A stretch of DNA of 57,257 bases from a virus. Lineage: Duplodnaviria > Heunggongvirae > Uroviricota > Caudoviricetes. A program made the position numbers. Numbering within the stretch: the stretch's first letter is position 1; every line of letters begins with the position of its first letter. Shown piece after piece: positions 1 through 6,000 of this stretch. The stretch lies in the IMG/VR virus record IMGVR_UViG_637000263_000002; one strand, given 5' to 3'.

Positions 1-3000
1 TCAAAACTGAAAGCGCATCCAGGCAAAGTACACATTGCCATTGTTGTAGGTACCCGGAATGTAGGTCATCTGAAAAGTCACTGGGCCATAACCCACGGAG
101 GCCAATGGCAGTAGAACCGGGAGAGGGATGTAATTCCAGTTATCGCGTGCCGTTACGCCAGCGGTGAATCCCAGACCTAAATGAAAATTTTCATCCGCCA
201 GCGGTCGCCAGGTACTTTCCCATCCGTATCCGGCAATCGGTTCCCATTTGTTCCACGAGTCCTTAAATGCCATGGCATACAGGCCATGCCAGTTTCCTTT
301 TTCATCCCAACGCGACAGGCCAAAACCGCCACCCCACGGTCGCTCGTTATAGCGATCGGTTTTTTCTTTGTCGTAAGCGAAACGTGCATGCCAGGTGATG
401 GCAGGAATATATAAATCATAATGTTCAGGCTGTTGCCAGGTTTGTGCAATATTTTCTCTAAACGTTGTCATCCTCTCATCTGCGTTAGCAAAAACTTTAC
501 CAACGCTGATTAACTGAATAAAAACAAAGGAAAAGATAGCGACATATTTACTCACGTTCATTTGTGACCATAAAACATTTATCAAAAATCTACTACTAGC
601 ATAGCAAAGCTACAATTAACATAACCTTAATAGACCCAACATAAAGAATAATCTGAATAGCTGCTCTATTTATTTCCGCTTGTTCAAGTTAAATATTTCC
701 GCGCATCGATTAAAGATGATGCGTCGTTTTCTGCGATGGGAATAGTCAAAAAAGAAAAACCAAGTCTTTTTTGATGACAAAATGCAATCAAGGAAAAATT
801 ATTTTATTTTTTTAACGAGATACAACAATCATCTTAACGAAGTATATAATATATATCGTCAACCCATGCTCATATTAGATTATTTTTTGAGCGCACAGCC
901 GCAACTAACACCATTGCAATTAACAAATTTGCATCAATCCACCATCAATTTACACACATTATTATGTGATAATTGCCAACCGCTAAATATGCGTTTTGTT
1001 ATCTATGTATAAAAACAGCAACTTCAATGTCTTAATGGCAGTTTTTCTTGATTTTAATCAGCATTCATCGCCAATTTATTGGGCATATTTTTTCCTTAAG
1101 CTTTAGGAAGTTTTTATTATTTACTTTGGGCCTGGAGACAGGAAAAATTATGCTGACATTCATTGAACTCCTTATTGGGGTTGTGGTTATTGTGGGTGTG
1201 GCTCGCTACATCATTAAAGGGTATTCCGCCACTGGTGTGTTATTTGTCGGTGGCCTGTTATTGCTGATTATCAGTGCCATTATGGGGCACAAAGTGTTAC
1301 CGTCCAGCCAGGCTTCAACAGGCTACAGCGCCACGGATATCGTTGAATACGTTAAAATATTACTAATGAGCCGCGGCGGCGACCTCGGCATGATGATTAT
1401 GATGCTGTGTGGCTTTGCCGCTTACATGACCCATATCGGCGCGAATGATATGGTGGTCAAGCTGGCGTCAAAACCATTGCAGTATATTAACTCCCCTTAC
1501 CTGCTGATGATTGCCGCCTATTTTGTTGCTTGTCTGATGTCACTGGCCGTCTCTTCCGCAACCGGTCTGGGGGTTTTGCTGATGGCAACCCTGTTTCCGG
1601 TGATGGTAAACGTTGGTATCAGTCGTGGCGCAGCAGCTGCCATTTGTGCCTCCCCGGCGGCGATTATTCTCGCACCGACTTCAGGGGATGTGGTGCTGGC
1701 GGCGCAGGCTTCCGAAATGTCGCTGATTGACTTCGCCTTCAAAACGACGCTGCCTATCTCAATTGCTGCAATTATCGGCATGGCGATCGCCCACTTCTTC
1801 TGGCAACGTTATCTGGATAAAAAAGAGCACATCTCTCATGAAATGTTAGATGTCAGTGAAATCACCACCACTGCCCCCGCGTTTTATGCCATTTTGCCGT
1901 TCACGCCGATCATCGGTGTACTGATTTTTGACGGTAAATGGGGTCCGCAATTACACATCATCACTATTCTGGTGATTTGTATGCTGATTGCCTCCATTCT
2001 GGAGTTCCTCCGCAGCTTTAATACCCAGAAAGTTTTCTCTGGTCTGGAAGTGGCTTATCGCGGGATGGCAGATGCGTTTGCTAACGTGGTGATGCTGCTG
2101 GTTGCCGCTGGGGTATTCGCTCAGGGGCTTAGCACCATCGGCTTTATTCAAAGTCTGATTTCTATCGCTACCTCGTTTGGTTCGGCGAGTATCATCCTGA
2201 TGCTGGTATTGGTGATTCTGACCATGCTGGCGGCAGTCACGACCGGTTCAGGCAATGCGCCGTTTTATGCGTTTGTTGAGATGATCCCGAAACTGGCGCA
2301 CTCTTCCGGCATTAACCCGGCGTATTTGACTATCCCGATGCTGCAGGCGTCAAACCTGGGTCGTACCCTATCACCCGTTTCTGGCGTAGTCGTTGCGGTT
2401 GCCGGGATGGCGAAAATCTCACCATTTGAAGTCGTAAAACGCACCTCGGTGCCGGTGCTTGTTGGGCTAGTGATTGTTATCGTTGCTACAGAGCTGATGG
2501 TGCCAGGAACGGCAGCAGCGGTCACAGGCAAGTAAATAGTAATGCCGGAGGCAAGTTTCCTCCGGCTTTATCATGTCACCCACTGTGGTATATGCGTTGT
2601 GGTCTGCCAACTTTGCCGTGAACAATTTCAGCAATAATCAGATGGCGGCTGGCGCAATATTCAAGATAACGCCTGGCAGTGGTGCGGCTGATGGTCAGTG
2701 CCTGCGCCACCGTTTCTGCCGTATGTTGCACACCAGGCTCTTTAAACAGTTTTCGCACCGCGTTTAGCGTCAAGGGGTCAATGCCGGTCGGCAGTTCGTC
2801 TTTGGGTTCACCGCGAGCATAGGCATTAAACATCTCATCAATTTGCTTCTGGCTGGCGCTATCAATACTTTCCAGCATATGTTTACGCTGGCGGAAACGG
2901 GTTAGCGTTTGCCCCAGTGTATTGATTCACTTGAAGTACGAAAAAACCGGGAGAACATTGGATTATTCGGGATCTGATGGGATTAGATTTGGTGGGGCTT

Positions 3001-6000
3001 GCAAGCCTGTAGTACAAATTTTAGGCGTTAACCAATGAAACGCGAAAGATAGTAAAAAATTGCTTTTGTTTCATTGAAAAAACGAAAAACAAAAACACTA
3101 TAAATCATTTCAATCATAGCTTCAAAAAACGTTCAAAACCGATAACAACCAGGCTGTCACCAAATGACTCATATCACAAATCAGCTCATGCCGTTTAGGT
3201 ATGTTACATGTGTGATTATGTGAGGTGAAGTATGTTTTAGCTGGCTCATGGTTGTTATACGGCTTTTTTCGCATCTTGTGGTTCCAACAAAGGAGCTACA
3301 GGCTCTTCCTGTTTATGAACACCATACATTGACAAAATCTCTTGGCGAGTTTCTGGAGGTAATTTATGCAGCGCCAAAGCTGTTTGTAGTGTTTGGCGAT
3401 CAATACCCAGCGTTGCCAATAGGGTGTCAACGGAGATGGAGGGGCGTTCTTGCATTAATCCGGAAAGCCCATATTTAGCCATGTTTAGCTCTATCTCTCG
3501 GACTTCATTTTCTCCTAGTTTATTGATTAACAGGGAGAACATTTTCAATGTATCAGCATTCATTTCTTCGATAGCAATTTTTTGCATAGCCGGTATTGCC
3601 GGGATATATTCAACCCCAGGCCCGCGACGCCCTTCTTGTGAACGCTTCGGCCATCCTTCTTTCTTTGCTCGTTTATGCACCCCCTGTATTGTCCCAGGCA
3701 TTCCATCCAGTTCAGTAATTTGTTTGGGTGTCATCCACTGGTTTATCTCATTTGCGCTTTTCATAAACTAAGTTTACCAGATTTATCTATATAAAAATCA
3801 ATGGATTACAAAATAAACCACATTAACTGATATAAACCGGTTTGGTTTATTTGGTAATGTATAAAACAGATAATCAAGACGAATTATTTGTTTTGGTAAC
3901 CCTTTATCATACGCAATATGGTTGGTGTGCGAAAGATGAGTAACGATTGGCATCGGGCCGACGTGATTGCGGCCCTCAAAAAAACAGGAACCCCTCTGGC
4001 AAAATTGTCCAGACGTTCAGGTTATTCAACCGGGACGCTTGCAAATGCATTAGTCAGGCCATGGCCTAAAGGTGAACGCATTATTGCTGACGCCTTAAAC
4101 ATGAAACCTGAGGAAATTTGGCCTAGTAGATATCTAAGGGATCACAATGAGAGAGTGGATATCAGCAATTGAATGCATGGGTTTATCTGGTTTACCTGGT
4201 TCATTAATGGGGGTTCACAAAAGAGCTCAGAGAGAAGGATGGCTCAAGAGAAGAAGAGAAGGAATTAGAGGGGTTGCTTACGAATACCATATATCTTCTC
4301 TTCCTAACATTGCTCGAGCTGAAGTTTTGCTCCAACAAGGAAAATTTAAAACCAGTCAGGGATGTTTTGAAATCGCCCGCCCCACGCTGGAAGCTCATGA
4401 TTATGATCGTGAGGCACTATGGAGCAAATGGGATAAAGCCAGCGATTCCCAGCGCAGCCTGGCTGAAAAATGGTTGCCCTCAATTCAGGCCACAGACGAA
4501 ATGCTGAACCAGGGGATTTCAACGAAAACGGCTTTTGCGACCGTTGCAGGGCATTACCAGGTCAGCGCATCCACTTTGCGGGACAAGTATTACCAGGTAC
4601 AGAAGTTTGCGAAGCCTGACTGGGCGGCTGCACTTGTTGATGGACGTGGAGCATCCCGTCGCAATGTTCACAAAAGTGAATTTGACGAGGATGCCTGGCA
4701 GTTTCTGATTGCAGATTATCTGCGACCGGAAAAACCCGCCTTCCGCAAATGTTATGAGCGTCTGGAACTGGCAGCCCGCGAGCATGGCTGGAGTATTCCC
4801 TCCCGTGCCACGGCCTTTCGCCGGATTCAGCAACTGGACGAGGCAATGGTTGTTGCCTGTCGTGAAGGTGAACATGCACTGATGCATCTGATACCGGCAC
4901 AGCAGCGAACTGTGGAACACCTGGACGCCATGCAGTGGATCAACGGCGACGGTTATCTGCATAACGTCTTTGTACGCTGGTTTAACGGTGATGTGATCCG
5001 TCCGAAAACATGGTTCTGGCAGGATGTGAAAACCCGAAAAATTCTGGGCTGGCGCTGCGATGTGAGCGAGAACATTGATTCAATTCGCCTCTCGTTCATG
5101 GATGTTGTGACTCGCTACAGTATCCCGGAGGATTTTCACATCACCATTGATAACACCCGTGGTGCTGCGAATAAATGGCTGACGGGAGGCGCGCCCAATC
5201 GCTACCGCTTTAAGGTAAAAGAGGACGATCCAAAAGGACTGTTTTTACTGATGGGTGCGAAAATGCACTGGACAAGCGTTGTTGCCGGTAAAGGCTGGGG
5301 CCAGGCAAAACCTGTTGAACGTGCTTTCGGTGTTGGTGGGCTTGAGGAATACGTTGATAAGCATCCGGCACTGGCTGGCGCATATACGGGGCCAAATCCG
5401 CAGGCAAAACCTGATAACTATGGCGACCACGCTGTTGATGCAGAGCTGTTTCTGAAAACCTTTGCCGAAGGTGTGGCGATGTTCAATGCCAGAACAGGCC
5501 GTGAAACAGAAATGTGCGGGGGCAAACTCTCGTTTGATGATGTTTTCGAGCGTGAATACGCCAGAACGATTGTGCGTAAGCCAACCGAAGAACAAAAACG
5601 GATGCTGTTACTGCCTGCCGAGGCGGTGAACGTTTCACGCAAAGGCGAGTTTACGCTTAAAGTTGGCGGCTCCCTTAAAGGCGCGAAAAACGTTTATTAC
5701 AACATGGCATTAATGAATGCCGGAGTGAAAAAAGTTGTGGTCAGATTTGATCCACAGCAGTTACACAGCACGGTTTATTGAGATAGCCTGAGTTTAACGG
5801 ACACTCCTTCCTGAAATAGAATGGCATCAGAAGGAGCTAATAATGAGCAGAAAAACCCAACGTTACTCTAAAGAGTTCAAAGCCGAAGCTGTCAGAACGG
5901 TTCTTGAAAATCAACTTTCGATCAGTGAAGGCGCTTCCCGATTATCCCTTCCTGAAGGCACTTTAGGACAATGGGTTACCGCCGCCAGAAAAGGGCTCGG

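Follow-up and report, generated by a model that had tools for sequence, protein, structure and literature searches.

Sequence comparison identifies the Mu-like locus at positions 2918–5778 of the DNA analysed here (a stretch of 57,257 nt, hereafter the 57-kb window) as the dead left-hand 2.9 kb of a Mu-family transposable prophage, a defective fragment that retains, from left to right, the left end (attL), the leftward repressor gene c and the rightward genes ner and A′, the last a truncated transposase gene. With a probability of about 0.88, we read it as what is left of a mosaic Mu-family prophage in the host gene dpiA that was cut by the insertion sequence IS600, lost its remainder by recombination and has been carried passively as a stub. 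The stub is a case of ordinary genome decay, save for a rare repressor/Ner ‘immunity’ module that has no match in isolated phages. Its homology to Mu (E = 0) dismisses chance resemblance.

Both ends of the remnant, as placed by the first-pass annotation, are exact to the base. On the left, host DNA is collinear with Escherichia coli K-12 pagP–dcuC–dpiA (98.8% identical) up to window position 2917, which corresponds to dpiA nucleotide 340. At the host/Mu junction (2917|2918), inside dpiA, Mu homology opens with TGTATTGATTCACTTGAAGTACGAAAA, which is Mu position 1. The remaining 3′ fragment of the broken gene (dpiA, also called citB; 2576–2917, minus strand) keeps nucleotides 340–681; its called open reading frame (ORF) comprises the last 100 codons, and it matches positions 127–226 of the 226-position NCBIfam DpiA profile. 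The 57-kb window contains neither the 5′ part of dpiA nor dpiB or the cit operon. On the right, the Mu-derived span ends at base 5778 and IS600 begins at 5779.

The Mu-type left end (2918–3254, plus strand) carries the terminal TG and three transposase-binding sites, L1 (2928–2944), L2 (3032–3048) and L3 (3072–3088), each assigned by its match to the consensus YMYNWRAARYRCGAAAR, which lies at element positions 11, 115 and 155 compared with 11, 116 and 156 in Mu. Besides these three sites, a scan with the consensus gave one chance match, inside A, and no others. The left end shares 93–98% DNA identity with Mu positions 1–300 (window 2918–3217), and the following 100 bases, which reach into c, share 83%; taken over roughly 340 bp, the left end of Mu is 96% identical to that of the stub. 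Across 2918–3217, identity is lower to D108 and SfMu (50–91%) and to the prophages of E. coli UMNF18 and Salmonella enterica (72–90%). A blastn search of the window with the whole Mu genome matched Mu 1–447 and Mu 1511–2964 (the latter span 97.8% identical) and, as a third match, a 98-bp tail-fibre-assembly similarity at 54268–54365. With that one exception, the search found no Mu sequence in the window beyond Mu position 2964 and no B, late genes or Mu right end with its R1–R3 sites, in agreement with the first-pass statement that no B or late genes follow.

The stub shares with Mu its terminal sequence, the L1–L3 sites and the gene order of attL, leftward c, and rightward ner and A. The c gene (3255–3764, minus strand) is an intact 169-codon ORF whose product has a Mu-type winged-helix DNA-binding domain: it matches Pfam HTH_Tnp_Mu_1 (PF02316; E = 4.5e-12) and the solved DNA-binding domain of the Mu repressor (1G4D). 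PF02316 is present in A as well; both proteins match the solved domains 1G4D and 1TNS, and their N termini are identical at 24/59 residues. The ner gene (3936–4172, plus strand) has 78 codons, or 84 if read from an upstream ATG at 3918, and encodes a protein matching HTH_35 (PF13693; E = 4e-29). Its last 26 nt are shared with the start of A, an overlap that Mu lacks. The divergent control region between c and ner (3765–3935), presumed to hold operators and promoters, contains GTTTAT five times in 220 bp, against 0.14 copies expected, and a role for these motifs in control is presumed. A promoter scan of the c–ner spacer gave matches no more numerous than in shuffled sequence, and none was assigned.

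The immunity region of the stub, judged by these genes, is of a third type, neither that of Mu nor that of D108 and SfMu. As first noted, the repressor, Ner and the N terminus of A all diverge from Mu: identity is 35% for c, 68% for Ner and only 47% (36/76) for A residues 1–76, the divergence in A extending over about 60–76 residues. The first-pass annotation had expected this of a D108- or SfMu-type region, an assignment that fails because in c and Ner the stub is even less like these phages than it is like Mu, with c at 28% for D108 and 29% for SfMu and Ner at 54% for both. D108 and SfMu themselves share one immunity type, their c proteins being 89% and their Ner proteins 98% identical (PMC4406740). 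By contrast, the only close relatives, the UMNF18 prophage and the Salmonella prophages that encode c proteins P0003/P0004, match the stub at 85–87% in c (85% for UMNF18), 99% in Ner and 65/76 in A residues 1–76. They have the 26-nt overlap of ner and A as well, and their control regions are laid out alike; alignment shows that the control region of the stub is one 9-bp tandem unit short, a unit that these relatives keep. On this evidence the stub falls outside the Mu group, whose c and Ner would lie near those of Mu, and outside the D108/SfMu group. It fits a group, defined in this analysis by sequence likeness, in which c is at least 85% identical, Ner is about 99% identical, the I-alpha domain of A matches and the control region is collinear.

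A profile of DNA identity along the element delimits the mosaic. Over 3318–4317, identity to UMNF18 is 81–95%, against 22–66% to Mu, D108 and SfMu (36–66% for Mu). Over 4518–5517, all four are alike at 99–100%, and over 5518–5717 identity to D108 falls to 93–94%. The core of A, called Mu-identical at first, is thus nearly identical to Mu as stated, but it is equally identical to D108, SfMu and UMNF18. D108 and SfMu are mosaics of the same kind, in which genomes otherwise almost the same vary in c, the operators, ner and the first ~60–76 residues of A (PMC4406740).

The third immunity type is rare. It was found in one of 5,426 complete E. coli genomes (UMNF18), and 50,697 phage records gave no instance of it; it also occurs in Salmonella enterica prophages. 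The UMNF18 prophage lies in yphC, spans c to mom and is apparently full-length, with three late genes annotated as partial or frameshifted. The Salmonella loci have full-length A, B and an early region, one next to xseA/guaB and another at a different site. The presence of this type, at different chromosomal sites, in prophages that look full-length or have the full early region shows that it is a real phage module.

These comparisons bear directly on whether the stub descends from a D108- or SfMu-type phage and is a remnant of SfMu, the known Mu-like phage of Shigella flexneri. Southern bands common to most S. flexneri strains were read in the SfMu paper as an SfMu remnant (PMC4406740), and the A core of the stub, which is 100% identical to SfMu over much of 4718–5778, would hybridise to the probe. 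That core, however, is equally identical to Mu and D108 and is therefore uninformative on parentage. The parts that do discriminate point away from SfMu: c and Ner are as divergent as stated above, A residues 1–76 match at 38/76 (39/76 for D108), DNA identity over 3318–4317 is 24–57%, and the left end is far nearer to Mu than to SfMu (50–89%). We consider an SfMu origin very improbable.

The transposase fragment A′ (4147–5778, plus strand) retains codons 1–544. As the first-pass annotation proposed, it is cut by IS600 at codon 544: base 5778 is the last of Mu origin, and the reading frame is closed by TGA, the first three bases of IS600, giving an ORF of 544 codons at 4147–5781 that breaks where Mu would have residue 545 of 663. 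Residues 77–544 are identical to MuA at 460 of 468 positions (98.3%), bearing out the claim of an almost identical core, and the DDE triad is intact (D268, D335 and E391). A′ keeps domains I-alpha, I-beta and I-gamma and the DDE core; the break falls inside the C-terminal barrel of the core, and domain III is wholly missing. Pfam HTH_Tnp_Mu_1, HTH_Tnp_Mu_2 and DDE_2 are accordingly complete, with Mu-transpos_C matched at profile positions 1–50 of 61 only, and A′ aligns with residues 1–469 of 529 of the 4FCY chain and residues 1–298 of 327 of 1BCM. A full-length MuA-type transposase would have about 662 amino acids and include domain III, which published MuA work found to be required for DNA cleavage and for interactions with MuB and ClpX. 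With no right end, no B or late genes and nothing to match MuA residues 546–663, the stub can, by sound inference, neither transpose nor yield phage, and the first-pass conclusion that the element cannot transpose is upheld.

The IS600 copy at the break (5779–7042, plus strand; 1264 bp) is a member of the IS3 family that shares 99.8% identity with the IS600 annotated on plasmid pCP301 and has ORFs of 100 and 272 amino acids and a match to an NCBIfam IS3 transposase (E = 3e-98). It fits the definition of IS600, an element of about 1264 bp with imperfect terminal inverted repeats and two overlapping ORFs (HTH_Tnp_1, followed by rve). It is flanked by TAT and ATT, and the 3-bp target duplication expected of a simple insertion is absent, which implies that the site is a rearrangement joint formed by later recombination. 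Target duplications are absent at all three IS600 copies in the window, and no matching flanks among the three reveal a rearrangement partner. The reciprocal junction (the right end of IS600, 3 nt and A from codon 545 onward) was not found in viral and metagenome contigs, where Shigella chromosomes are probably poorly represented.

Beyond IS600, A does not continue. Instead, IS600 abuts a prophage head-gene module on the other strand (7043–12100, minus strand). This module lies outside the Mu-like element and shares 95% identity with Escherichia phage vB_EcoM-689R2, which has cI/cro/Q regulation, a DNA polymerase and a helicase, and no transposase. The DNA to the right of IS600 is from an unrelated, lambdoid-regulated, non-transposable phage. 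The head genes carry Pfam matches such as Phage_Mu_F and a major capsid family. We considered whether they might be inverted Mu late genes and rejected this: they have no blastn or meaningful tblastx match to Mu, and the close match to a phage that has no transposase also argues against it. That IS600 simply inserted into a prophage otherwise complete, or that assembly produced a chimera, is almost certainly not the explanation of this arrangement. Prophage genes are often interrupted by IS elements, and misassembly can arise at repeats such as IS600, but Mu sequence is absent past IS600 in the window, no 3-bp duplication is present, and the same two junctions recur in many complete genomes that were assembled independently.

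Every one of the 11 S. flexneri-type loci examined, among them those of S. flexneri 2002017 and LM651928, has the stub at this site, with identical junctions and at least 99.7% identity. An index of public assemblies lists the exact 544-residue A′ product in 945 blocks. In the genome papers of S. flexneri M90T and 8401, no mention of Mu or a prophage was found for this locus. IS-truncated defective prophages of Shigella show the same pattern, with IS600 at the break, no target duplications and several prophage fragments stacked in one region, and the stub is a typical case of IS-driven genome decay in Shigella. The rest of the Mu-like prophage may survive elsewhere in the S. flexneri chromosome. 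One table in the M90T supplement groups citC, dpiA and dcuC, a hint that the far side of the locus still exists somewhere.

In the origin that we favour, a transposable phage of the Mu family would have lysogenised an ancestor of S. flexneri by integrating into dpiA. The phage would have been a three-part mosaic, combining a Mu-type left end, a rare third-type immunity module (c, the operators, ner and, from A, the enhancer/operator-binding I-alpha domain) and the near-invariant A core common to Mu, D108 and SfMu. IS600 would next have entered A after codon 544, and later IS600-mediated recombination, by deletion or inversion, would have eliminated all that lay to the right and fused the stub to a different decayed prophage. 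The missing target duplications suggest this order of insertion, IS600 entry and rearrangement. In A codons 131–544, the changes private to Shigella comprise three nonsynonymous and no synonymous substitutions; together with the loss of the 9-bp repeat in the operator region these fit relaxed selection, a signal that amounts in A to three substitutions only.

Decay has nonetheless been mild. The c and ner ORFs, the attL sites and the DDE triad have all stayed intact, and c or ner may keep some residual function. The c gene and the control region are the sole parts that could still work, by repressing their own divergent promoters and incoming phages of the same immunity type, and the intact c might still give immunity. 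We weighed whether the stub persists as a retained immunity module, either because expressed c and its operators shield S. flexneri from Mu-family phages of the same immunity type or because A′ poisons incoming Mu-family transpososomes, and consider it unlikely. The c gene is full-length, with 169 codons as in its intact-prophage relatives, and gene calls, which came with 9 loci, include a 169-codon c ORF in 8 of them; the region is conserved in every locus examined; and A′ keeps all its DNA-binding domains and the DDE core, its end-binding domains being almost the same as their counterparts in Mu, D108 and SfMu. S. flexneri genomes are, however, so alike (at least 99.7% here) that conservation is no evidence of selection, and the control region has lost a repeat unit kept by all intact relatives. 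Phages of this immunity type are very rare in the E. coli genomes and phage records searched, so they would exert little selection. The literature searched yielded no expression data, and an active c should silence the promoter that drives A′. A further step, in which the stub would be an exapted defence module, with c blocking homo-immune phages, A′, which keeps every end- and enhancer-binding domain but cannot catalyse, acting as a dominant-negative inhibitor of incoming Mu-family transpososomes, or both, is in our judgement decidedly unlikely; the near identity of the end-binding domains across Mu, D108 and SfMu means that inhibition by A′ could cross immunity types.

Under the preferred reading of a passively carried stub, the main value of the locus lies in annotation and strain history. 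The Mu-related remnant in S. flexneri, known earlier by inference from Southern bands alone (PMC4406740), now has an exact map, which shows that it did not come from SfMu, and the loss of dpiA at this locus is explained by prophage insertion. For the Mu/D108 family, the stub and its relatives represent a third allele of c, ner and the A N terminus, a further example of the known co-variation of the repressor and the enhancer-binding domain.

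The Mu-like remnant runs from window position 2918, the phage Mu left end (first bases TGTATTGATTCACTTGAAGTACGAAAA), to 5778, its final Mu-derived base, as the first-pass annotation had placed it. To its left lie the host genes pagP (1–585, minus strand, from the gene call), dcuC (1048–2535), which is a single ORF here, and the final 100 codons of a response-regulator gene (2576–2878, minus strand), which match positions 127–226 of the 226-position DpiA profile. Collinearity with Escherichia coli K-12 is 98.8% and ends exactly at 2917, aligned with dpiA nucleotide 340; the K-12 comparison found none of the 5′ part of dpiA, dpiB or the cit operon anywhere in the window. 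The three transposase-binding sites lie at element positions 11, 115 and 155 (position 1 being window 2918), compared with 11, 116 and 156 in Mu. Some other genomes with the remnant have dcuC broken into two or three ORFs (comparison loci L006, 7005–8389, and L007, 7014–8247); L007 appears error-rich overall. Read counts for dcuC, dpiA and citC appear together in a supplementary table of the M90T paper.

The remnant encodes a repressor, a regulator and a transposase. The repressor gene c (3255–3764, minus strand) is a 169-codon ORF with the Mu DNA-binding domain (Pfam PF02316), and ner (3936 or 3918 to 4172; 78 or 84 codons) encodes a Ner-type HTH_35 domain. The 544-codon ORF of the transposase gene A (4147–5781) contains, in order, PF02316, the I-gamma domain (PF09039), DDE_2 (PF02914) and a cut Mu-transpos_C domain, in which profile positions 1–50 of 61 are matched. 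It covers residues 1–469 of 529 of the MuA chain in the transpososome structure 4FCY and residues 1–298 of 327 of the core fragment 1BCM, and it retains the catalytic D, D and E residues. Two solved structures, the Mu repressor domain (1G4D) and the I-alpha domain of MuA (1TNS), are each matched by the N-terminus of c and by that of A. The ner and A genes overlap by 26 nt (4147–4172 in the window, 4246–4271 in comparison locus L001), and Ner has a 12-residue C-terminal extension in this immunity type. The overlap is present in all of the UMNF18 and Salmonella relatives, in contrast to Mu and D108, in which the two genes do not overlap.

Pairwise alignment bore out the observation that the A core is nearly that of MuA and that the A N-terminus (its first 75 or so residues), c and Ner differ from Mu, and overturned the proposal of a D108- or SfMu-type immunity region. 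Residues 77–544 of A are identical to Mu at 460 of 468 positions, to D108 and SfMu at 459 each and to the Mu-like prophage of E. coli UMNF18 at 457, whereas residues 1–76 share 36, 39 and 38 of 76 positions with Mu, D108 and SfMu, and 65 with UMNF18. The c protein is 35%, 28% and 29% identical to those of Mu, D108 and SfMu and 85% identical to that of UMNF18; the corresponding values for Ner are 68%, 54%, 54% and 99%. The immunity allele is instead a third type, neither of the two described. In DNA identity profiles of 100-bp bins, positions 2918–3217 are of Mu type (Mu 93–98%, UMNF18 72–90%, D108 and SfMu 50–91%), 3318–4317 are close to UMNF18 only (81–95%, against 22–66% for the other three) and 4518–5517 are 99–100% identical to all four, except in two bins at 98% or less; identity to D108 is 93–94% over 5518–5717. 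This three-block profile shows the remnant to be a mosaic. Its divergent block corresponds to a unit whose variation between Mu and D108 was known before and which comprises the repressor, operators, Ner and the operator/enhancer-binding A domain. Positions 4318–4517 (codons ∼58–124 of A) are 82–91% identical to all four phages alike and carry four private amino-acid changes together with N97K, which is absent from all four; this patch probably stems from a further Mu-family lineage and not from decay.

As the first-pass annotation recognized, A is cut at codon 544 by IS600 (5779–7042, plus strand, 1,264 bp, with IS3-family ORFs), which shares 99.8% identity with the IS600 annotated on the Shigella flexneri 301 virulence plasmid and whose bases 1–3 supply the TGA stop. 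The break falls at residue 545 of the 663 in MuA, so that the end of domain II-beta and domains III-alpha and III-beta are missing. In MuA, domain III-alpha is required for DNA cleavage and assembly, and domain III-beta contacts MuB and ClpX. Because of these roles, a protein that stops at residue 544 should bind Mu ends but would be expected to fail to transpose them, which agrees, together with the absence of the rest of the prophage from the window, with the earlier view that the element cannot transpose. IS600 is flanked by TAT and ATT, without a 3-bp direct repeat, and such repeats are absent at all three window copies (5779–7042, plus; 20751–21987, minus; 31131–32394, plus), which are 97.7–100% identical to one another. 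Each copy, that at the A break included, is therefore a rearrangement joint formed by recombination and not a simple insertion. IS600 probably inserted into A and then took part in a deletion or inversion through which the remainder of the prophage was lost.

A does not continue in frame past 5778; IS600 is followed by an unrelated head-gene module, and B and the late genes are absent, again as first described. The whole 36.7-kb Mu genome gave three blastn matches in the window: Mu 1–447, Mu 1511–2964 and a 98-bp piece of a tail-fibre-assembly gene (54268–54365, 76.5% identical); elsewhere all tblastx matches were below 36 bits. The head-gene module (7043–12100, minus strand) encodes a portal, a Mu-F-like head morphogenesis protein, a scaffold/protease, a decoration protein and a major capsid protein. 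The Pfam name Phage_Mu_F is not evidence of Mu origin, and the module matches Escherichia phage vB_EcoM-689R2 at 95% identity. This myovirus is lambdoid-regulated (cI/cro/Q) and encodes a DNA polymerase and a helicase but no transposase. Farther right come replication and lysis genes of lambdoid type, and then head and tail genes resembling those of phage 21 and lambda (32400–54300, plus strand; 84–91% identical to their matches). A leucine-rich-repeat ORF read from translation (54681–56198, minus strand) is presumably an ipaH effector gene, and we take 56781–57257 (minus strand), read by eye in translation, to be a ybcL-like gene. A 619-codon ORF (22199–24058, plus strand) with a Toprim_2 domain and weak Hint and LAGLIDADG matches may be a phage primase with an intein; at its 3′ end it enters the last of three further IS3-family elements (12798–14071, 15570–16774 and 24033–25237, all minus strand), positions at which IS content varies among S. 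flexneri genomes. One of the three (301- and 136-amino-acid ORFs) interrupts a Terminase_3 gene, and a second element, with ORFs of 279 and 112 amino acids, accounts for two copies.

An index look-up placed the exact 544-residue A product in 945 blocks of public assemblies. We compared 11 loci, nine retrieved through this product (among them CP001383 and LM651928, presumably S. flexneri 2002017 and NCTC1) and two through the A/IS600 junction string, one named S. flexneri and the other labelled E. coli. All 11 have the same dpiA–Mu junction, wherever the fetched DNA extends that far, and at least 99.7% identity over the part of 2500–7300 that they span, with 100% matches in two whole-span and two partial loci. 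The remnant is thus common to all S. flexneri chromosomes examined and no single-strain peculiarity. Southern bands that most S. flexneri strains share have been read as an SfMu remnant (PMC4406740). The 1.4-kb A core would hybridize to the probe used there, and the immunity region of the S. flexneri remnant does not derive from SfMu.

The immunity type is rare. Among 50,697 phage genomes, no c protein exceeds 36% identity, UMNF18 is the single match to the 1-kb divergent block in 5,426 complete E. coli genomes, and 5.8 billion proteins yield ten clusters of c relatives: S. flexneri (94 members), two from Salmonella enterica (85–87% identical) and a few others, some partial. The UMNF18 prophage, inside yphC, spans c to mom, with three late genes annotated as partial or frameshifted, and the Salmonella copies, at other chromosomal sites, have full-length A, B, kil, gam, mor and lysis genes; the type therefore belongs to real phages. 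Between c and ner (3765–3935 in the window; 3835–4050 in L001 and 9806–10020 in locus L020), GTTTAT occurs five times in 220 bp against 0.14 expected, and these motifs are candidate operator elements. All three intact relatives (UMNF18 and the Salmonella prophages) keep a 9-bp tandem unit, GTTTATNTG, that is missing once in the Shigella copy.

This 9-bp loss and three private nonsynonymous changes in A codons 131–544, where private synonymous changes number zero, are small signs of decay, and passive carriage of a dead fragment is the supported reading. The c and ner genes, the left-end sites and the DDE triad all remain intact, which speaks against complete decay, so c may still act; that it represses its own control region and incoming phages of the same type seems improbable, and S. 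flexneri genomes are too alike for conservation to give a verdict on c function. The remnant is an ordinary IS-truncated prophage stub, and it carries a rare, uncharacterized immunity module of the Mu/D108 family.
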